10,863 nucleotides of DNA, from the UHGV virus genome UHGV-0116495; one strand, 5' to 3'. Below are positions 88 through 10,863 of the stretch, in pieces. Numbering within the stretch: position 1 is the first letter of the stretch; each line of letters begins with the position of its first letter. This stretch comes from a virus. The notes under the pieces were generated by a model. It had not been told where the DNA came from. It worked only from the letters and a program-made list of their open reading frames with translations, and did no database searches. Position numbers and translations under genes: made by a program.

Positions 88-1122
88 CAGACCAATTAAT
101 GCATCTCTAAAAACACAGGCCGTTATCTCATGATTATGATAAGCAACTGTTTGCTGTGACCTGTCTCCATATTCAATACACGTGCAATTTGAAGCTGAGC
201 CATCAATGTCAATATACGAAATAGATGTCTGTTTTTTCTTTCTCACATCAACAATAGGATCTGCATATCCAATAGTATGGTCATCTGCTAGCTTAAGTGT
301 AGATTTAAGATTAAAACCTGATGAAGAGTAAGCCCACGCAGATTTGATGCCTGTGAGAGCCTTGTTATCTTGCATAACTACAGGTGTCTTAATAAACAAA
401 TACCTGTCTACTAGCACCTCAACCCCATACGGACTGTTCAGAGCTTTATTTATTGGTATAGCGTTATCGGTTTCGGGACCTGGCTTAGCTCCGTAAAAAA
501 TCGCATTCAGAGGTCCATTGAAAGTCCCAGCATACAATCCATCCCTCACAACCTGACCTACCGCTCCAGTATTAATGACAATACCATCATCTGGAGCTAG
601 GTTTCGATTGCTGTAATATGTGAAACGCCCCCCAGCTAAATCGCCAGTTTCGAATCCGTATTTCGCTATAATAATTGTTCCGTCTTCAAAATCATCTCCT
701 GTTTCGGCAGCAATATCTACGTATCTGAATCCTAGTCCGCCAATAAGTGTATATCCATTTTCCCCTTCAATTAACCCCCTAAATTGATCTGGGTCATACT
801 TAATTATGTTTGGATAGTAGAACTGCTGTGTACCATACGCATCATAAACAGCCATAGAATGGCCTTGCACAGTTACGAACTTGGCAATCTGTCCGTTATA
901 TACCGGATATCCAGCAGCATTAATGATGATTGGTTGCGGAACAGGAACGTGAGAGCCGTCTTCGTTCTCCACATAAACCTGAATCTGGTTTTCAGGATTT
1001 ACCGGGTCAGTGTCAATTTTACCGATATAAATTTTGCCATTAGCTACGGCTTTAAAAGAACGCGCCATAGTGAAGAGTTGCGAAGGCATCGATACGATCA
1101 CATTGGCTGTAATGTCTGTCAT
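85..1122 (-). pseudogene. P22-like tailspike (gp9 family): conserved N-terminal head-binding domain plus part of a non-P22 receptor-binding domain, truncated at codon 345 by IS2
   Basis: N-terminus [46 protein letters not shown] closely resembles the P22/Sf6/HK620 tailspike head-binding domain. At 345 aa it is about half the length of known tailspikes. The stop codon TAG (85-87) is the first three bases of the IS2 end. RBS TGGAG lies upstream of the ATG at 1122. Confidence 0.75.
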
Positions 1123-1257
1123 TTAATTTGCTCCAGATACAAGGAATCGCCGCAGCATGGCTACGGTTGGTATTTGTTTGGTTTTTGAACTACGAAAATT
1201 TCGTAGTGCTATCCATCAAGGCCATCGCCGCTTAGTTGCTGCGGTGAATTTTGGGCA

Positions 1258-1282
1258 TAAAAAAACCCAGCCGAAGCTGGGT
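1258..1282 (-). terminator. Rho-independent terminator downstream of ant
   Basis: On the - strand: 7-bp stem ACCCAGC/GCTGGGT (1265-1271 and 1276-1282) with loop CGAA, followed by a run of seven U (complement of the A-run at 1259-1265). Confidence 0.6.
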
Positions 1283-1300
1283 CGTTGCGTTGGTTATCTG

Positions 1301-2179
1301 TCAGTAGTTATGTACTGAAGGAGGCAATTCTTTATTCTTAAGTCTCATCCATGCGGAAAGATTCGTTGGTCCGTCTGGCTCATTAATATCAACATCTCGT
1401 GTGTGGTTTATTAAAACGTCTCTCGCCATTCCGATAACATACGAGAATTCATGACCGTAGTCGTAGCATCTGCCGGAATAGTTCGATTGAATTTGTTTTA
1501 GCGCCGGATACAGTTCGCGGAATAATGCCTGTGAGCGGTTGGCATAATCCCATAACCATACAAGGCTGTTTGCTTCTTTTGCAGAAAGCTCGTTGGTTTT
1601 CTTCTCTTGTTTGCCAATGAACTCACCTTCAAGCACTACCCTGTGGATGTACTCTACGGCCAGCGGGATTTGTTCAATTGAAAGTTCATCAATGCTGTCA
1701 ATACCAAAACGCTGATGAACCATATTGTATGCATCGTCATAGCGAAGTCCTTTCTTTCCTACCAGCATGTTTACTGCATCGCGTAGCGGTGTTCTTTCCT
1801 CAACAGTGGTTTTCTTTCCTTTTACATACTCGCCATGTTTGCGAATTGAAGGCAGAACTTCTGCTGTTACCCACTTGCGGAATTTGTGCGGGACTGAACC
1901 TTTATTGACTGCATCGCGGCAGCGCAGAACCAATGTATACATACCTGATTCGCTCACAATGCTTAGATTCTGCTCACCACCAAGGGTGTAACTTAAAGTT
2001 ACTCCCTTTTCATCGTCATCAAGTGCAGTAAGCGCCTTGCGTGAGTTAGTCAAATCTAAAGCATCACAAACATCTTTAGCTACAAACCACGGCTCACCGC
2101 ACTTGTTGATGACGCGGATTTCACTGTCGCCGAATTTGAAGATGGTGAAATCGTTTTGTGCCTTTGCTATACTTTTCAT
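1301..2179 (-). CDS. ant: Antirepressor Ant (immI region), 292 aa
   Basis: Sits immediately downstream of arc on the same strand and upstream of the tailspike, as in P22 immI. Size is close to P22 Ant. AGGAAA RBS upstream of the ATG at 2179. The N-terminal region has the look of a Bro-N/AntA-type domain. Confidence 0.85.
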
Positions 2180-2247
2180 GTCAATATTTCCTAATCCGAT
2201 TTGTTGATGCCGAAGCCCTGACTGTTACAGCAGTTGGGGCTTCAACT

Positions 2248-2409
2248 TTACGCACCAATGCGCCCTTCCTTCTTAAAGCTTTCCATTACTCGCTGATAAA
2301 TCTCAGAATTAACAGACCGACCATTTTCTTCCGCCACCTTGCGTACCAAATCCAATACTTCTTTAGGCCACCGCAAATTGAACTGTGGCATTTTGCTCAT
2401 TCCTTTCAT
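2248..2409 (-). CDS. arc: Arc repressor (ribbon-helix-helix), 53 aa
   Basis: Translation MKGMSKMPQFNLRWPKEVLDLVRKVAEENGRSVNSEIYQRVMESFKKEGRIGA is essentially the P22 Arc sequence as I recall it (one R/K difference). GAGGTGA RBS 5 nt upstream of the ATG at 2409. The longer track ORF starting at 2472 begins inside the operator and is rejected. Confidence 0.9.
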   Translation of the reverse strand: MKGMSKMPQFNLRWPKEVLDLVRKVAEENGRSVNSEIYQRVMESFKKEGRIGA

Positions 2410-2425
2410 GTTCACCTCACAATAT

Positions 2426-2442
2426 AGGTCCACGGTGGACCT
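2426..2442. promoter_or_regulatory. Mnt operator (Omnt), 17-bp perfect palindrome AGGTCCACGGTGGACCT
   Basis: Exact match to the P22 Mnt operator as I recall it; lies just downstream of the Pant -10. Confidence 0.8.
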
Positions 2443-2448
2443 ATTGAG

Positions 2449-2477
2449 AATATAGTAGAGTGCTTCTATCATGTCAA
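2449..2477 (-). promoter_or_regulatory. Pant promoter (-35 TTGACA, 17-bp spacer, -10 TATATT) driving arc-ant
   Basis: On the - strand: TTGACA (complement of 2472-2477), a 17-bp spacer containing Oarc, then TATATT (complement of 2449-2454). Omnt overlaps the expected transcription start. Confidence 0.7.
2452..2472. promoter_or_regulatory. Arc operator (Oarc), 21 bp ATAGTAGAGTGCTTCTATCAT
   Basis: Matches the P22 Arc operator with TAGA/TCTA half-sites; located between the -35 and -10 of Pant. Confidence 0.8.
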
Positions 2478-2499
2478 TACACTAACTTGGAGTGATGGC

Positions 2500-2754
2500 A
2501 TGGCTAGAGATGATCCGCACTTTAACTTCCGTATGCCTTTGGAAGTAAGAGAAAAATTGAAATTAAGAGCCGAGGCTAACGGAAGGTCAATGAACTCTGA
2601 GTTATTACAAATCGTTCAGGATGCACTATCAAAACCATCACCGATTACAGGATATCGCGACGAAGCTGAACGCTTGGCTGATCAGCAGGCTGAGCAGTTC
2701 AAGGCTATAGTGTTTGAGACACTTAAAAAGATTTATGAAAAGGATTTGAAATGA
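2500..2754 (+). CDS. mnt: Mnt repressor (ribbon-helix-helix), 84 aa
   Basis: N-terminus MARDDPHFNFRMPLEVREKLKLRAEANGRSMNSELLQIVQDALSKPSP matches P22 Mnt as I recall it. GGAGTGA RBS upstream. Divergent from arc-ant across the operator region. Confidence 0.9.
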   Translation: MARDDPHFNFRMPLEVREKLKLRAEANGRSMNSELLQIVQDALSKPSPITGYRDEAERLADQQAEQFKAIVFETLKKIYEKDLK

Positions 2755-3086
2755 GATTTCTATCACTGTTCTTGTTAGCAGTTGTCTCTTCTTCCAGTGC
2801 TGAGCTGCGCGAGCTTCAAACGGGTAATGACCTTCTTTACAACATTCAACAAGGTAAAAAGGGTGATGATTTTTCATCGCTTTACATTACTGGATATTTG
2901 CGCGGAGTAACTGACTCATTGATACTAATTGGTTCTCTATGTCCTCCTGATGGCGTTGACATGTATCAATACACCGATATCGTTGAGAAATATCTAAACA
3001 AAAACCCAGAATCAAGAAATGAGAGTGCAGTTATACTAACCGCCCTAGCAGTAGGAAAAACATTTCCGTGCAAAAAGAATCAATAA
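2751..3086 (+). CDS. Small secreted protein, 111 aa: predicted Sec signal peptide, two Cys in the mature part, family unknown
   Basis: Start ATG overlaps the mnt stop (ATGA at 2751-2754), implying translational coupling. N-terminus MRFLSLFLLAVVSSSSA-ELRE looks like a cleavable signal peptide. Mature part has two Cys (LCPPDG and FPCKK). Visibly AT-richer than the flanking late genes. Confidence 0.55.
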   Translation: MRFLSLFLLAVVSSSSAELRELQTGNDLLYNIQQGKKGDDFSSLYITGYLRGVTDSLILIGSLCPPDGVDMYQYTDIVEKYLNKNPESRNESAVILTALAVGKTFPCKKNQ

Positions 3087-3101
3087 CAATAAGGGCTTAA
3101 A

Positions 3102-3491
3102 ATGAAATTGATTATAGCAATGGCTTTCCTTGTCTTCTCGTTTTCTGTCTCAGCAGAGTGCTGGGTCGTTGGAGATATGCACGGAATAAGCTATTCAGAA
3201 CGAAATAATTTTCAACCGGAAGAAGATGGTTTTAGTGGAACATTCATCATTAAGACAAACGATGAAGATGCCAGTATCACATATTCTGGGACGGATGCGG
3301 GCGGCATGGCTTACAAAGCATTGTCTAAAAACTCCATCATTGGAATCGGTGCGAATGGCGAAACTCAACGAGTTATCGACTCATGGGTAATACATCCTAA
3401 TGGAACAGTTTTAATGTCGAAAACCATTTCTGGTTATGGGAATATGGATTCAACCAAAGCTTTTGTTGGAAAAGTAAAAAGAAAATGTTAA
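3102..3491 (+). CDS. Small secreted protein, 129 aa: predicted Sec signal peptide, Cys near both ends of the mature part, family unknown
   Basis: AAGGG RBS 7 nt upstream of the ATG. N-terminus MKLIIAMAFLVFSFSVSA-ECW looks like a signal peptide without a lipobox. Gly/Ser/Thr-rich, probably mostly beta. Same strand as, and 15 bp after, the previous ORF. AT-rich. Confidence 0.55.
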   Translation: MKLIIAMAFLVFSFSVSAECWVVGDMHGISYSERNNFQPEEDGFSGTFIIKTNDEDASITYSGTDAGGMAYKALSKNSIIGIGANGETQRVIDSWVIHPNGTVLMSKTISGYGNMDSTKAFVGKVKRKC

Positions 3492-3515
3492 CGATTGAAT
3501 CCAATTCCCCATACG

Positions 3516-5357
3516 TTACTGCTGTGTTGCCTCAGTAGCAAGCAGCGGCCTGATGGCATTTGCAGCGTTACTCAACGCTCTTTCATAGGCTGGCGTTCCA
3601 GCTTTAGTGTTTGCCAGACGTAAGAGAGCATTCCTTGCTGCTTTGGACTCATACAAACGCATCATTGCACCAAAGCCAGCCTCAAGCCCCATTGATACAC
3701 CAAGAGTCGCAGTTGCGCCAATCGTCCTTATCCTGTTGGCTTGTGATTGCCCCGTCTGAGTTACTACATTTGCGGTGTCTGACCTTGCTGTTTGCTGTAG
3801 AACTTCATGAAGAGCATCAAGCTCTTTCATGTGCTTTCCAGAAAAAATAGTGTTGTAAATTTCACCGCCTGACTGAGATTTCAGCTTATTAACTTCAGTG
3901 ATGAACTTGGCTGGAGAGTCACCGGCCTTTTCCGCTATTTTGCTGACGTAAGCTGCACGCATAGCATCTTTCCCTTTATCATCCAGGGCGCTCCATATTC
4001 GTTTCACGTCAGATGGTTTTCTGCTTAATACAACGGTATTTATAAGTTCAGGACTGGCTTCACTGCTTGCCTTGTTGAGCTTGTTAGCAATGTTTTTATT
4101 AAGCACCTTATTATAAACGTTTGCATAATCGGAATTTGCTTTAAGGTATTTTGCTGCGTCTGATGCACCGAGGTTTTTAGCAACTGCGTTACGAAGGTCT
4201 TTTGACATTGCATTCTCTACCATATTGGTAGCTGCTTTTGCCTGGTTGGGGAAGACCATAGCATCTCCCTGAACATTAGATCTAAATGCTGTTCTGTGCT
4301 GACGCAAGAGATCAAACGTAACATCCAAATCAGTTGCAGGGTTTGCTAATTCTTCACGTAGGTTACGCAAGGATGTAAGCAGGCTTTGATTGGCAGACGT
4401 CCCAAGCCGTTCCTGTCTTGCGATCGCTGTATTCAGAGCATTCATGGTATTTGTGGTATCAACTGCGGCATTACCCATTTTATTGGTGACGTCATTGATA
4501 ACAGCGCCAGCGGCATCCTTCCGCCCCCTTAACGTGGTGGTAAGAGATTTCACCACATCATCAGGGTTGTACTCACCAAAACGGTCAAAATAATTACTTA
4601 CCAGCTTACTACGCGTTGCATATTGCTCCGCTCGCTTTGAGCCTGTCCCGAGCAAAGCCCCCTCGGCATCCTGAGTTAGGCCGCGAGTGAAAGCATTTTT
4701 CGGCGGGATAACATCAGATGTCATTGGTGTCACGCCCATCGATTCTGATGTGGCAATTTTCTTCGCCACTTCTGGCGCAATATCACCTTTTATAGCCGTT
4801 ATTCCACGCCCTATTCCCTTTGCTGCTGCGGAAAGAACACCCTGAGTGGCAAGGTTAACTCCGGCATTTTTAGCTGCATTTTGTGCGAAATCGCCTTTCT
4901 GATTTGCGGCCTCTGCCAGTGATCCAATAGCCATGCTTCCTGCCGTTCCAACTCCTGGAACTAAATACCCACCAATTGTTTCACCGGCTTGCGCGTAGGG
5001 GTCTGTCGGTCTGTCTACTGGACGATAAACATCATCCAAAACCTTGGGTCCACCAAGCCCCTGACTGATTGCATTAATCAGACTTGCGCCGCCCTGCAAT
5101 ACGTCAAATGGTATGTTTACCAGACCACGACCAGCCTGTTCTGCAATTTGCCCTGCACTTTGACCACCAGTGAGCCAATCGCCAGCTTGTTGGATCAATG
5201 ATGGTTCTTCCCGTGTTGGTGCATTATTGGCCTGATTAACTGTTTGTTGCTGAACAGCCTGACCAGCAAAATACTCATCAATGGCGGTGCCAATATCTTC
5301 GGTGCTCGTACCATCAGGAAAGGTAAATGTCTTACCGTTTGCAGTTACTTTCATCAT
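3516..5357 (-). CDS. gp16: P22 gp16-like ejection (injection) protein, 613 aa
   Basis: Position and size match P22 gene 16 (about 609 aa) in the 7-20-16 order. Start ATG overlaps the gp20 stop (ATGA). Ala/Gly-rich composition typical of ejection proteins. Confidence 0.85.
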
Positions 5358-6769
5358 TCCACCGTAAATTGAATGCCTGATTTTGAGGTATATGATCCAA
5401 CCTGATTCCGTGGTTCTCCTGAAGGTGTCGAATCTTGTGCTGGCGCTGCGTCAGTATTCATTGACATATACCGCTTAACGGCACTCCCCAATGATTCACC
5501 TTTTTTAACATCCAACCCCAATATCTGACCGCCATTACGCGATTGTCCAGGGTTGCCATTCGCGCTCATCCACTCGGCTTTAAACTCATTAAACTGCGCG
5601 TTTCGTCGCTCAAGGTTTGCCATTGCATCAAGCCATCTTGCGACCGTCTCAGGGTTATCCATGTCAGTTGGCGCACCCTGTCGAACGATCTCAACGTCTT
5701 TATCCGTTGCTGGGCCGGGAGGTAGGAATTTAAGAACCTGACTGTTAACAAGGGCATTTTGGCGAATGCGCAAATCACGCAATGTTGTATCGCTTCCGGT
5801 AAGTTTTGCGAACATGTTCTGTGCGTTACCGAACAAACCTGTCGTTGGTTTTTCTGCTCTGAACTGTTGAGCAAGCGCACTCATAGAATTGGCTGAGTTT
5901 GATGATGCTGTAGCATTGTTTACAGCCGTCTCGATGCCTTTTTCCATGTTTACTGACAGCTTAGGTGCTTCGCTAATCAACTGCTGAGCCTTTTCCTGCG
6001 CTTGCTGCATCTTAAACCCGAACTCTTGCTGATCCAGAGCCAAGCGTTGTGCTGCGATATTGTGCCCAGTCATTGCTGACTGATAGGAAAGGTTTTGCCC
6101 TCTCGCCTGAAGTGCTTCACCAGCCTGATTGCTGCGGATTGTCTCTGCCAGCCTGCCTCGGTCAATCTCACGACCAGCCATCTTGTCCTGAACAGCAAAC
6201 GCCTTTTCTGGCCCAAGTGCACCGAGAGACATAGTAGTCAGCATGTGTGATAGCTGCTCTGGATTCTGGATACCTGTCTGAATCATCCAGTCAGCATTCG
6301 CACCCACGCGATTTAACCTGTCCTTGTTGTCAGTAATGAATTTACTGTAGGCTTCCGGTCCCTGGGAAAGAGCGACGTTAGCCCTCATGGCTAAATCGCC
6401 CATATCGTTGCGTTGCTGCTCATTAAGACCGGAAAACGCCTGTTGTGCCTGTGCAACAAACGCTGGATTTTCCTGGGCAAACTTAAATAGTCCAGATGGA
6501 TCACCAGAAGCCCATGCATCAGCGTGAACCTTATTGAACGCACTAATAGCTTTCTGTTGCTGTTCCTGATTGTAAATATCAGCAACTCCAGCCAGACCAC
6601 GTAACGCGGTCAGACCAATGTTATTTGCACCTGAGCGAGCCAGTTCATTGTTTTCGCGGATCAGACCAAACGTTGCGTTAATGTCGCTTGCCTTTGGCGC
6701 ATTCTCATTTTGCGTACCGATGCCAGCCAGAAAACCACCAGAATTAATACCCTGTTGCCACGTAGCCAT
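5354..6769 (-). CDS. gp20: P22 gp20-like ejection protein, 471 aa
   Basis: Same length as P22 gp20 (471 aa as I recall); sits between the gp7 and gp16 homologues. AGGGGT RBS upstream. Confidence 0.85.
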
Positions 6770-6779
6770 TGATTACCCC

Positions 6780-7472
6780 TTAAAACAACGAGCCAAGCAG
6801 ACCAAGACCGCCGCCGATCGCAGCCCCCCACGGAGTTGATGAACCAATTAATTTCGCAAGTCCGGCCCCAGCAATAGCACCAGACGCACCTCCGCCAATA
6901 GCAGATTGCATTGCTGATGGTCTGTTGGCATTTGCCGCTGCAAGAGCCGCACTTTGCTGCGAAATCTGACTCATATTGTTGGCATATGTTTGCCCGGCGT
7001 TTGCCTGACCTTGCAGTGCGCCAAGACCAATATTTGCCAGATTCTGGTAGTTGTTCATCTGACCAGATAGCCATTGCTGACCAAGCGTTGGAGCGATTGT
7101 TGCTAACTGATTACCGGTTGCAGTGGAACCCAATCCACCTGTTGCTTCCGCTGCCGCCAGACTCTGATAGCGAGCCTGACCAGCAAGATCTTTGTACTGC
7201 TGAGAGTTGTAATACTGGTTAAGTGCCTGACCTTGCCCTTCCAGAGACGATAAGTTCTCGAGGCTGCCGACATACTTATCAGCCAGAGGAGTAAACGGCT
7301 TCAGGTTGTTCATGATGGTGTTGAACTGCTGATTTTGCAGGTCTGCGGCATACTTCTGGGCTTCTGCGGCATACTTTGCGCTTTTATCAGAACTGCCACC
7401 TTTCCCGCCTTTTTCAGGGCAATAAGGTTCCTCGCCACGCAGTTTTCTGCCCAGCTTAAATGCATATAACAT
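6780..7472 (-). CDS. gp7: P22 gp7-like ejection protein, 230 aa
   Basis: Length matches P22 gp7 (about 229 aa). Gly/Ala/Gln-rich with a hydrophobic Gly-rich C-terminus. GGGAG RBS upstream. Follows the gp14-position ORF with a 2-bp gap. Confidence 0.8.
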   Translation of the reverse strand: MLYAFKLGRKLRGEEPYCPEKGGKGGSSDKSAKYAAEAQKYAADLQNQQFNTIMNNLKPFTPLADKYVGSLENLSSLEGQGQALNQYYNSQQYKDLAGQARYQSLAAAEATGGLGSTATGNQLATIAPTLGQQWLSGQMNNYQNLANIGLGALQGQANAGQTYANNMSQISQQSAALAAANANRPSAMQSAIGGGASGAIAGAGLAKLIGSSTPWGAAIGGGLGLLGSLF

Positions 7473-7474
7473 GG

Positions 7475-7930
7475 CTATCTCCCGTGATTCAGGAATTCGA
7501 TTAGTTCTTCGCGTGTAGCACTGTAAAATGTCACGTCATCCACGCCTTTGAAGTATTTCTTGATGGTTCCTACACGCTTAAGTCCAATCATTGCGCAGTA
7601 CATCTGCCCGTGGCGGAATTTGCGTGCAGCGAACGATGTGACGCACTGAACGGTGGTGTTAGTCAGAATGTATCGCCAGAACGCCAGCCCGATTTCCTTG
7701 CTGAATCCGCGAATCTCTGGCAGGTACATGGCGTGGCAATCGAATGTAAGCGGCTGAATCTCCTGATAGTAAACAATGCCGCCGAACTGCCCGTGCACGT
7801 TCACCTCAAAGTAACGGCAATCAGGTTTGTAGTCGTATCCATCACCGTTGTTGCTCCCGGCAATAATGTCAGGGTGATTTCCGACTGCTTCGATCAGGTC
7901 GATGTTTCGCGTTGGTTTGAACTGAATCAT
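7475..7930 (-). CDS. gp14-position protein of the P22-like late operon, 151 aa (call is by synteny)
   Basis: Lies between the tail-needle fragment and gp7, where P22 has gene 14. Its ATG overlaps the stop of the upstream needle fragment by one base (TAATG). I do not recognise the sequence itself. Confidence 0.55.
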   Translation of the reverse strand: MIQFKPTRNIDLIEAVGNHPDIIAGSNNGDGYDYKPDCRYFEVNVHGQFGGIVYYQEIQPLTFDCHAMYLPEIRGFSKEIGLAFWRYILTNTTVQCVTSFAARKFRHGQMYCAMIGLKRVGTIKKYFKGVDDVTFYSATREELIEFLNHGR

Positions 7931-8403
7931 TACTGCTCCGCGATTATCTTGATGGTTGTGGCAGTAAACGCCGCACCATTAGACTGAATGGTTAACGTGC
8001 TGCCATTTGTGGCAAGAAAGCCGTCTTTATCCACACTGAAGAACGTAGCTAACAGGATGTTGTCGGTTGTTGTCGCCGCATTACGACTGCTGACCAACGT
8101 GTCAGGAACAGAGCCGGAAAAGGTTAGCTGCATTGACCTGTTGGTGGTTCCGCTGGGCCACGTCCCGACAATCGACAGCTTGAAGAACAAGGTTTTGTTC
8201 TCGTTGAACACAACCATCTTGTTGTTAACAGTGTCGAAGAATGGTGCCAACGTCCCGGATGACGGCGTGAGCGTTTTCAGCAGGCTAACAAGGTTGGTCG
8301 GCGCTGTCGGAATGGTTACTGATACGCCAGAGTAAACAACCTCTGACTTCTTGCGCGTGGTTGCATACTCCAGAGCATCAATGCGCGTTTCATGGTCTGA
8401 AAT
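7930..8403 (-). pseudogene. 3' fragment of the tail-needle gene (P22 gp26 family): end of the coiled coil plus C-terminal domain, about 157 codons, no start codon
   Basis: The in-frame region runs from the stop at 8404-8406 to the stop at 7930-7932. It contains ISDHETRIDALEY, resembling the DHE-containing heptad repeats of the gp26 coiled coil. There is no ATG or GTG before the TTG at 8250. The gene's 5' part, including the gp10-binding N-terminus, is absent. Stop overlaps the next gene's start as in an intact late operon. Confidence 0.6.
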
Positions 8404-8464
8404 CTATTGTTAATCTCCAATCAATGTTACGTTGTCATCTCACTCATGCTTTGGAGGTAGTGAT

Positions 8465-8644
8465 ATGTCTTGTCCAAAATGCGGTTCTGGAAATATTGCA
8501 AAAGAAAAAACAATGCGTGGATGGTCTGATGATTATGTGTGCTGCGATTGCGGATACAACGACTCTAAAGACGCATTTGGAGAGCGTGGTAAAAACGAGT
8601 TTGTCAAAATTAATAAAGAAAGCGAAGGCAACGAAAAAAGCTAA
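8465..8644 (+). CDS. Small zinc-ribbon protein, 59 aa (CPKC-x18-CCDC), with an acidic/lysine-rich C-terminal tail
   Basis: GGAGG RBS (8453-8457) 7 nt upstream of the ATG at 8465. Four Cys arranged as CxxC...CxxC. Followed by a strong terminator. AT-rich. Confidence 0.5.
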   Translation: MSCPKCGSGNIAKEKTMRGWSDDYVCCDCGYNDSKDAFGERGKNEFVKINKESEGNEKS

Positions 8645-8707
8645 TTTATTTATTCATATATGAAAACAATGTAACCAATATTCGAATTGAAGAACTGAAA
8701 GAACACC

Positions 8708-8731
8708 AAGCCGCCTGATGGCGGTTTTTTA
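8708..8731 (+). terminator. Rho-independent terminator after the zinc-ribbon ORF
   Basis: Stem AAGCCGCC/GGCGGTTT (8 bp including one G-U pair), loop TGAT, followed by TTTTTT. Confidence 0.65.
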
Positions 8732-8744
8732 TTGGAGACAAGAA

Positions 8745-9089
8745 ATGTCAGATTTGGCTATGAAGGTTTTGAAATGGCAATCGACTGGCGATGTCGGCAT
8801 CAGTAGCGCAACTCTTGCCTCAATCGCATGTGGACTGAAAAAGAATATCTATGGTCATCACTTCGGCGCTCCACATGACGCAGCAGATTTCCGACGATGC
8901 GTTGCACTTGTTGAGCAGATTCCAGAAATCAGAGATTCATTCGACAAGGTTGCAAAGCGCGTTCCGGCATTCAAAGGAATCCTCAACGAATGGGATTCAC
9001 TCGTTGCTCTGTTGAAGTCTGAAATGAAGGCGTACGGGAACAAAGCACCAGAGACTTACAGAAGAATCAGCGAGCTACGCAAGGACTAA
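8745..9089 (+). CDS. Hypothetical cytoplasmic protein, 114 aa, family unknown
   Basis: GGAGA RBS (8734-8738) about 6 nt upstream of the ATG at 8745. The track's earlier ATG at 8718 lies inside the upstream terminator loop and is rejected. No signal peptide or transmembrane segment is evident. Confidence 0.5.
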   Translation: MSDLAMKVLKWQSTGDVGISSATLASIACGLKKNIYGHHFGAPHDAADFRRCVALVEQIPEIRDSFDKVAKRVPAFKGILNEWDSLVALLKSEMKAYGNKAPETYRRISELRKD

Positions 9090-9125
9090 CGCCTCACACT
9101 CGATGAGGCCTGTACATATCTGATA

Positions 9126-9150
9126 GAGCCGCTATATGGCGGTTTCTTTT
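9126..9150 (+). terminator. Terminator-like hairpin plus U-tract between the 114-aa ORF and the alpA-like gene
   Basis: Stem GAGCCGC/GCGGTTT (with G-U pairs), loop TATATG, followed by CTTTTT. An upstream hairpin GCCTCA-N7-TGAGGC lies at 9091-9109. Confidence 0.45.
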
Positions 9151-9166
9151 TGCCTGGAGAATTAAG

Positions 9167-9358
9167 ATGACCGATACCAGCCTGATTCCTGAGAAAGAAG
9201 TGATGAACAAGCTCGGTGTTTCATCACGTCAGACAATCTGGAACTATACCAAACGGCACGGATTTCCGAAGCCAGTCAGAACCCACCCCAAATCATACCT
9301 TCGTGAAGCTGTTGAAGGGTGGATTCTTAACGGTGGCGTTAATCAGAAATGCTCCTGA
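9167..9358 (+). CDS. AlpA-family DNA-binding protein (prophage excisionase/transcriptional regulator), 63 aa
   Basis: LIPEKEVMNKLGVSSRQTIWNYTKRHGFPKPVR...EAVEGWI fits the AlpA/Xis-like winged-helix pattern (L-P-E-V...G-S-R-T-I...G-FPKP...W). GGAGA RBS upstream. Adjacent to the integrase. Confidence 0.75.
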   Translation: MTDTSLIPEKEVMNKLGVSSRQTIWNYTKRHGFPKPVRTHPKSYLREAVEGWILNGGVNQKCS

Positions 9359-10517
9359 TGTGCCAGAACAATTTATCAGCGTGAAGCTCATACGCTTTGC
9401 GCTGAGCCTCTATCCAGTCGTGTTTATTGTACACGGACATTATCCCGCCAAGTTCATGACCGAGCATTCGCTCAGTAACATGAGGCTCGACATTCATCTC
9501 GGACAGACGTGTAACAAGCGTTCTTCTGAAATCGTGTGTTCGCCAGTAACCTAGATCCATCCCTCCCCTTATTCTATTTACGAATCGGTTGGCTGCAGCG
9601 ATGCTGATCGGTTTGTTTATGTCTTCTCCAGGGAAAAGAACATCATTGTACGTTGTCATGGCCTTTTCGAGGAAAGGCTTAATTTGTTCGAAGATTGGAC
9701 GGCGGATAACATTACCCATCTTGCTATGCTCTTTCGGTACGGTCCATACGTTTTCCAGCAGATCAAATTCTGTCTTTTTTGCCAGCCTAAGCTCTGAGAG
9801 CCTCGCCCCCCACAGCATAAGCATCTGATGAAGTAGCTTATTTGACGTAGACGCACGGCTTCTTTCAATAGCAAGCCAAATCTTAGCCAGTTCGTGATAC
9901 GACAGTACCCGATCCCCTACCTCAGCGCGGGAGCCGAAGTCCCTTGGTTGGATGCTCATAATTGCGCAACTATCTATCAACTGACGCCGCATGCACCAAC
10001 TTATTGCTGATCTTAGTTGACTTAGCACCTGCCTTGCTCGGCGTGGATTATCTCTTTCTTCTTCGGTAAGCAGGTCAACCCATTGCTTAACCGTGATAGA
10101 AGATGCCGGACGATTAGGAAAGGCGTCATGCATGCGCTTCATAACCGTTGATCGGTAAAGTGCCTGGGTCTTTTCTCTGAGAGTTGTAGAGACGTAGTTG
10201 TCGAACCAGTAGTCGAGACACTGGGCGACCGTCATGGAGTTCTCCACCTTCTCTTCAAAATAGGTGCGTGGATCCGTTCCTGAGAAATAGAGCTTTCGCA
10301 AGTCAGCAGTGATCTGTCTGGCATCCTTCAAAGACAGGGATGGGTATCGACCAAGCCCAAGTCGATTAGGCTTGCCATGCCAGCGATAGCGGTACTGGAA
10401 CTGGATGACCCCCTTCGGTGAAATTCGTACGCTGAGGCCATCGGCATCAGCCACTTCTTGTGGGCCCGAATATGGTTTACCATAAATAGTACGCAGTTTT
10501 GTGTCGCTTATAGCCAT
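9339..10517 (-). CDS. int: Tyrosine site-specific integrase, P4-type (N-terminal arm-binding domain plus catalytic domain), 392 aa
   Basis: The N-terminus (DGLSVRISPKGVIQFQYRYRWHGKPNRLGLGRYPSLSLKDAR) is typical of the P4-like integrase arm-binding domain. The C-terminus has the catalytic motifs ARLSELR, HDFRRT, LGHELGG and SVYNKHDW (Tyr). It is the last prophage gene before sbcB. Confidence 0.9.
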   Translation of the reverse strand: MAISDTKLRTIYGKPYSGPQEVADADGLSVRISPKGVIQFQYRYRWHGKPNRLGLGRYPSLSLKDARQITADLRKLYFSGTDPRTYFEEKVENSMTVAQCLDYWFDNYVSTTLREKTQALYRSTVMKRMHDAFPNRPASSITVKQWVDLLTEEERDNPRRARQVLSQLRSAISWCMRRQLIDSCAIMSIQPRDFGSRAEVGDRVLSYHELAKIWLAIERSRASTSNKLLHQMLMLWGARLSELRLAKKTEFDLLENVWTVPKEHSKMGNVIRRPIFEQIKPFLEKAMTTYNDVLFPGEDINKPISIAAANRFVNRIRGGMDLGYWRTHDFRRTLVTRLSEMNVEPHVTERMLGHELGGIMSVYNKHDWIEAQRKAYELHADKLFWHIRSISD

Positions 10518-10525
10518 AAATAATA

Positions 10526-10569
10526 TTTGGTACGCTCAAAAATAATGGTTTGGTACACATCTGGTACAC
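10526..10569. repeat. Three direct repeats of TGGTAC(A/G)C upstream of int
   Basis: TTTGGTACGC (10526-10535), TTTGGTACAC (10549-10558) and CTGGTACAC (10561-10569), in an AT-rich junction between int and sbcB. Candidate arm-type or regulatory sites. Confidence 0.5.
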
Positions 10570-10698
10570 AATATCACATGGACAACAGCGCACAGTAAAC
10601 AACTATATTTGACGTTCGTAGACATACTCAGGTGAAAAAATGGTTGTTTTTCGAGTTATAACAGACAGTTAATTAACTACAGTGGACAATGCTAGACA

Positions 10699-10863
10699 AT
10701 GACAGACACAGATAAACAACCTACCTTCCTCTTTCACGATTACGAAACCTTTGGCACGCACCCCGCGTTAGATCGCCCTGCACAGTTCGCAGCCATTCGC
10801 ACCGATAGCGAATTCAATGTCATCGGCGAACCCGAAGTCTTTTACTGCAAGCCCGCGGATGAC
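10699..10863 (+). CDS. sbcB: Exodeoxyribonuclease I (SbcB), N-terminal 55 codons; the gene continues past the window end
   Basis: Translation MTDTDKQPTFLFHDYETFGTHPALDRPAQFAAIRTDSEFNVIGEPEVFYCKPADD matches enterobacterial exonuclease I. The open frame runs to the window edge. Confidence 0.85.
   Translation, partial: MTDTDKQPTFLFHDYETFGTHPALDRPAQFAAIRTDSEFNVIGEPEVFYCKPADD

Follow-up and report, generated by a model that had tools for sequence, protein, structure and literature searches.

A deletion joint at the tail-needle gene of a defective P22-like Escherichia coli prophage

The window analysed here (the whole stretch of DNA, 10,863 nt) carries a defective P22-like prophage in which an internal deletion joint truncates the tail-needle gene, a core reading that had already been made in a first-pass annotation of the sequence and that holds. 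The joint is very probably the mark left by a spontaneous deletion inside a P22/Sf6-like (Lederbergvirus-type) prophage lying between dacD and sbcB in E. coli. Illegitimate recombination over 2 bp (AA, 8401–8402) would have fused needle codon 126 to a point 64 bp before the eag ATG, removing the N-terminal plug/virion-binding domain of the needle along with nearly the whole coiled-coil shaft, all genes between the needle gene and eag, and the late promoter of the needle gene. A 157-codon knob-coding piece would then have been left behind as a pseudogene.

Contents of the prophage remnant

The genes and regions recognised in the window on either side of the joint were as follows.

88–1122, minus strand: 5′ part of the tailspike gene, interrupted after codon 345, with the head-binding domain and some sequence past it (phrog_8280)
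1301–2754, no single strand: immI region (phrog_245, Rfam, annotation), with arc placed inside it by annotation
1301–2179, minus strand: ant, in the immI region
2181–2247, plus strand: sar antisense RNA, intact (Rfam RF00262, 65.6 bits, E = 4e-12)
2500–2754, plus strand: mnt-like gene, in the immI region
3516–7472, minus strand: ejection (DNA transfer) protein genes (phrog_598, phrog_917 and phrog_770 as a set), all three intact
3516–5357, minus strand: gp16
5354–6769, minus strand: gp20
6780–7472, minus strand: gp7
7475–7930, minus strand: gene 14 homologue (DUF2824), intact (phrog_651, E = 5e-78; annotation)
8465–8644, plus strand: small eag-type zinc-ribbon gene of 59 aa, intact (RefSeq "Eag protein")
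8745–10517, no single strand: integration module, adjoining sbcB (annotation, Pfam, PHROG)
8745–9089, plus strand: hypothetical gene of the integration module
9167–9358, plus strand: AlpA-like HTH gene of the integration module
9339–10517, minus strand: tyrosine integrase of the integration module

The late gene order of P22-like phages (Lederbergvirus), in which needle, 14, 7, 20 and 16 are followed by immI (mnt, arc, sar, ant) and then by the tailspike, is found here, as evidenced through PHROG matches, the sar RNA and 95–97% DNA identity to Sf6 and N7. The ATG of gene 14 overlaps the needle TAA at 7930, and the eag gene, which also shows weak Pfam matches to Lar_restr_allev and a zinc-ribbon family, is divergent from the needle fragment. 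The sar RNA, the antisense regulator of immI in P22, lies between ant and arc.

Two moron-like genes are situated between mnt and gp16 (2751–3491, plus strand), in an interval that we take to be the place of sieA in the P22 map. The first encodes a Rap1a/Tai-family (T6SS-immunity-like) protein of 111 aa, and the second a 129-aa protein whose hydrophobic N-terminus resembles a signal peptide by eye; the single SNP that separates the window from its sibling genomes (3350) falls within this second gene. At the other end of the window, the AlpA-like gene and the integrase converge, their 3′ ends overlapping by 20 nt (9339–9358). Terminator-like hairpins on the plus strand follow eag (8708–8727) and the next hypothetical gene (9126–9145), as if the two were separate small transcription units, and no promoter-like site was found for either. 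A 100-codon ORF beginning with TTG (8361–8663, plus strand) crosses the joint in a frame other than that of eag and is most likely spurious.

The sequence upstream of the needle frame, described initially as accessory ORFs and int, is indeed a module of eag, a hypothetical gene, the AlpA-like gene and the integrase. The ejection proteins, immI and the integration genes, which the same description listed as everything that the prophage had kept, are all present, but so are the tailspike gene, gene 14 and the moron-like genes, with gtrABC just outside the window. There is, however, no complete P22-like gene set: with phages N7 and Huey for comparison, neither the window nor locus L001 has any terminase, portal, scaffold, coat, gp4, gp10, lysis, replication or immC genes in the interval from the needle fragment to eag. 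Lacking its head, portal, terminase, lysis, replication and immC genes, the remnant can neither form virions nor replicate nor cause lysis.

The joint and its occurrence in other genomes

The prophage is present at the same dacD-sbcB site in E. coli F719 (NZ_OY754392.1, locus L002). L001 and L002 are 99.98% identical over the prophage arms and chromosomal flanks, compared with 97–99% for other strains, and the needle gene of F719 is intact at 282 aa. Base-by-base comparison with F719, together with translation, gives the following features around the joint.

7930–8403, minus strand: tail-needle pseudogene fragment (translation, PF16532, PDB knobs, alignment A1, RefSeq annotation)
8248–8250, minus strand: earliest start-like codon in frame, TTG, at residue 177 of the complete needle (ORF and start inspection)
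8401–8402, no strand: deletion joint, AA common to both parents
8403–8464, plus strand: native intergenic spacer upstream of eag
8404–8406, minus strand: TAG stop of eag-side origin, closing the needle frame upstream (translation of 8466–7930)

Identity to F719 on the needle side stops at 8402 (L002 28315), and on the eag side it starts at 8401 (L002 34567) and continues as a 100% match; in F719 the two breakpoints are separated by 6,251 bp. The one on the right is 32 nt past the stop of the F719 DUF551 gene and 64 nt ahead of the eag ATG. By this comparison, the joint is placed at 8400/8403 with a 2-bp overlap, and not around 8404–8440 as first suggested, since 8403–8464 is native eag spacer. 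The microhomology consists of the AA alone, situated within an imperfect patch (GAAACCT / GCAATCT, 5/7 matching). Wider comparison shows the same change of affinity: left of ~8405 the window has 95–97% DNA identity to Sf6, N7 and related phages, and right of ~8401 its matches are to int-proximal sequence in other P22-like phages and in Stx phages. In more than 600 E. coli genomes, the match begins at 8401 and runs rightwards only.

No IS sequence was found at 8390–8470, the nearest being at 1–87, and there is no att sequence at the joint; the Rfam scan, whose only hit was the sar RNA, gave none there. The joint is seamless, with a 2-bp overlap, flanks that are identical to the base, and parental sites that are not adjacent in L002, as in an illegitimate (microhomology-level) deletion. 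Because it is seamless, has minimal microhomology and is without IS or att, the sequence indicates that the joint probably arose by illegitimate recombination. An overlap of 2 bp is within chance expectation, and the enzymatic pathway is therefore not identified by it. Adjacent deletion by an IS, or site-specific or homologous recombination between repeats, has some circumstantial appeal, given that IS2 and IS3-family elements are active within and near the remnant and that the joints of other lineages at this site (L003 and L004) do carry IS elements. It is nevertheless very improbable as the origin of a seamless joint that contains no IS sequence, where an IS-mediated adjacent deletion would have an IS element, and whose parental sites have only 2 bp in common, or 5/7 within the imperfect patch.

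Of 5,426 complete E. coli genomes, three contain the joint (CUVM3, CPww7 and 2-1), and it was further found in one ENA assembly, GCA_040011875.1 and GCA_049321455.1, giving at least six independent assemblies. The three finished chromosomes, all from pig isolates, are 100% identical to the window over 88–10863. An exact search of JGI metagenome contigs with a 40-mer across the joint gave no match. The joint is fixed in one clone. An assembly artefact had been named as the finding that would overturn the deletion, and a chimera of two elements would do the same; it was worth considering as the window opens within an IS2 copy, a typical site for contig breaks, yet no positive support for it was found. 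The joint is not an assembly artefact, because it recurs in independent assemblies, three of them finished chromosomes and at least three others, whilst in F719 the two flanks belong to a single contiguous prophage occupying the same site in the chromosome. The probability of either can be regarded as negligible.

The needle fragment and its expression

The needle frame on the minus strand is open from 8403 down to 7930, as had been reported, and comprises 157 codons and a stop codon (TAA, 7930–7932), with the TAG at 8404–8406 immediately upstream. Its identity as needle sequence is borne out by PF16532 ("Sf6-type phage tail needle knob"), which matches the 157-codon translation at E = 7e-105 (7.3e-105) over profile positions 19–175 of 175. 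In alignment A1 the fragment corresponds to residues 126–282 of the 282-aa Sf6-type needle (gp9, the orthologue of P22 gp26), with the joint turning its first codon from V to I. The truncation described in the first-pass annotation is real, but residues 1–125 make up 44% of the gene, somewhat less than the 5′ half that was said to be lost.

Sf6-type needles have an N-terminal virion-binding (plug) domain, a shaft of ~11 heptads and a C-terminal TNF-like knob (PMC3741392), the knob of Sf6 being formed by residues ~139–282 (PMC3741392). The full-length 282-aa needle of the sibling strain matches the Sf6 and HS1 knobs (PDB 3RWN and 4K6B) at residues 130–282 (3RWN, E = 1e-89), and structures of the P22 gp26 shaft match it within residues 1–144, of which only 126–144 are kept in the window. 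The fragment contains a complete TNF-like knob, as recognised by PF16532 and 3RWN, and ~13 residues (about two heptads) of coiled-coil shaft; the coiled-coil repeats ascribed to this frame earlier do not describe it well. The N-terminal plug domain and the ~11-heptad trimeric shaft are not found, residues 1–125 being missing in alignment A1. Nor is there a complete ORF with a start between gp10 and gp14, as gp14 lies downstream but eag, and not gp10, lies upstream. The absence of a start codon and N-terminal domain was correctly noted before, and no intact needle gene with a conventional start, which would have spoken against the deletion, was seen in the frame between 8403 and 7930, where the earliest ATG, GTG or TTG is the TTG at 8250. 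RefSeq annotates the fragment on the finished chromosomes as a pseudogene ("tail needle knob protein, incomplete, missing N-terminus"). Judged by its coding content, the fragment appears as a remnant of a needle gene and no longer as a needle gene.

The TTG at 8250 had been put forward, on account of a preceding GGGA, as a start from which a C-terminal fragment could still be expressed. The GGGA is present and sits 2 nt upstream of the TTG; the usual SD spacing is 5–9 nt. No promoter-like (sigma-70-like) site was found on either strand of 7800–9400 in a simple consensus scan. The product would begin inside the jellyroll, without the first strands and without Glu146, the residue of the knob that binds glutamate (PMC3741392). 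Translation from this TTG thus seems unlikely, because of the 2-nt SD spacing, the lack of a promoter-like site and a start inside the knob fold at residue 177. Gene callers differ on the fragment, returning 157 aa, 95 aa or nothing, which is consistent with it having no credible start.

The 157-codon fragment is most likely a dead pseudogene, and we infer that it is untranslated because the start codon is missing, the region of the late promoter has been deleted and the scan showed no promoter-like site, the frame is closed immediately upstream by a TAG, the GGGA is at 2 nt and the product would be without knob strands. A function for the fragment was considered, in which the TTG at 8250, or some other start, would give rise to a free knob, for instance one that blocks incoming Sf6-like phages. 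Recombinant constructs beginning near the same residue form stable trimers (PMC3741392), and T4-like phages possess stand-alone knob homologues (PMC3741392). The frame also remains open across 157 codons, but a deletion as recent as the 100% identity of its flanks to the sibling strain suggests would leave it open anyway. No ATG, GTG or TTG precedes residue 177, and a product starting there would be deprived of the first knob strands and Glu146, in addition to the 2-nt distance between GGGA and TTG, the lack of a promoter-like site and the deletion of the late promoter, which makes a functional knob highly doubtful. Equally far-fetched is a broader version, according to which the arm of tailspike, immI, ejection genes and gtrABC would be under selection and the knob fragment would be translated unconventionally as a free trimeric knob acting against Sf6-like phages, although its first residue almost coincides with the start of the crystallised knob constructs.

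Extent of the deletion and comparison with known prophages

F719 has 6,251 bp that the window lacks, which include gp10, a fragment of gp4 and the run of early-left genes that starts with ral and ends with the DUF551 gene. Its prophage is already defective too, with its own joint between gp4′ and ′ral (L002 ~30205–30211, where the BLAST pieces overlap by 7 nt), which was found in F719 alone when 5,426 complete E. coli genomes were searched. On intact phages, the needle-side breakpoint corresponds to nt 377 of the 849-nt needle gene of N7, and the eag-side breakpoint to position 19509 of Huey. The equivalent arc of Huey is ~27.8 kb of 38.6 kb, which puts the shortfall against an intact P22-like genome at ~28 kb. 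Within this arc lie gp10, gp4, the coat, scaffold, portal and terminase genes, lysis and the late regulator, and further nin, replication, immC and the early-left genes. These endpoints confirm the loss of the head, lysis, replication and immC regions that had been deduced from the window.

The first-pass annotation spoke of a deletion of tens of kilobases, and whilst this describes the end state when compared with Huey, a single event of that size is not supported, given that F719 differs by 6,251 bp. Stepwise erosion, in which the joint would represent a 6,251-bp loss from an already defective prophage, has slightly better than an even chance, and two steps are at least as likely as one because F719 is already without the central genome through a different joint. 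Removal of ~28–31 kb at once from an intact P22-like prophage, independently of the deletion in F719, has a somewhat less than even chance. Besides the ~28 kb missing in comparison with intact genomes, the restriction of the gp4′/′ral joint to F719 favours such an event, and it is as parsimonious as stepwise loss: the deletion in the window spans the F719 joint, and therefore nested steps and independent deletions each need two events. Against it, the sole near-identical sibling (99.98%) is already defective and 6,251 bp apart, and no intact version of the prophage was found at sbcB. The endpoints are identical under a one-step or a two-step history. Look-ups of the exact gp14 and gp20 proteins revealed no intact direct ancestor; intact prophages with an identical gp14 or gp20 differ in needle type, integrase and insertion site, and were set aside as mosaic relatives.

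Further rearrangements were observed at this locus. Positions 1–87 of the window are the end of an IS2 copy (junction 87/88), the insertion of which cuts the tailspike gene after codon 345; they match an IS3-family element of L002 (14745–14831) at 100% identity and an annotated IS2 of L004 at 98.9%. This insertion is not present in CUVM3, CPww7, 2-1 or F719, and the source of the window is therefore a further member of the clone. In GCA_040011875.1 (L016/L020), an IS of 1,331 bp lies at a different position in the tailspike gene (equivalent to 628–632 of the window, with a 5-bp overlap), and an IS3-family element of 1,309 bp lies at the 3′ end of gp16 (equivalent to 3578–3581 of the window). 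The remnant in this clone has been hit by IS elements repeatedly and independently. The best match for an att core shared by the two prophage ends in L001 was 11 bp, which is not convincing, and an IS is located at the dacD-side end.

At the same locus, Z1323HEC0422 has a central deletion in the form gp4-IS3-int′ (L003 16870–18389), and FORC_031 has gp20′ joined to alpA, with int interrupted by IS100 (L004 11772–15287). P22-like prophages at dacD-sbcB have thus had their centre deleted or rearranged in at least four different ways in different E. coli lineages (gp4′/′ral; gp4-IS3-int′; gp20′/alpA with int::IS100; needle′/eag), and all four retain the arm that begins with the tailspike, includes immI and extends to the ejection genes.

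The joint carries little weight beyond annotation, where the breakpoint is now fixed to the base and the fragment is assigned as the knob of a dead needle gene, and it reveals no new mechanism or system. What remains of the prophage is non-inducible and has become fixed in a clone that includes complete genomes of pig isolates, for which the joint could act as a clonal marker. It offers a tidy example of prophage erosion, with a possibly intermediate state preserved in the sibling strain and IS insertions ongoing.

When compared with the needle of Sf6 (gene 9) and that of the E. coli prophage HS1, the orthologues of P22 gp26, the fragment is ~97–99% identical to the C-terminal part and has gene 14 immediately downstream, the arrangement seen in Sf6 and P22. 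It differs from them in having no residues 1–125, that is, the plug domain and ~9 of 11 shaft heptads, as well as no start codon and no gp10 gene upstream. The fragment cannot plug the portal channel, and is therefore a pseudogene remnant. The F719 remnant shares the tailspike, immI, the ejection genes, eag and int with the window, but differs in its intact needle gene, gp10, gp4 fragment, the genes from ral to DUF551, and its gp4′/′ral joint. The feature is of an already known kind, an ordinary scar of cryptic-prophage decay. Cryptic lambdoid and P22-like prophages of E. coli have likewise lost central lytic and replication genes whilst keeping an end with accessory genes (here gtrABC, immI and the moron-like genes) and an integrase, and likewise accumulate IS elements and show several independent deletion variants per attachment locus. 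Nothing essential differs from these prophages, the breakpoints at needle codon 126 and in the eag spacer being what is specific to this clone.
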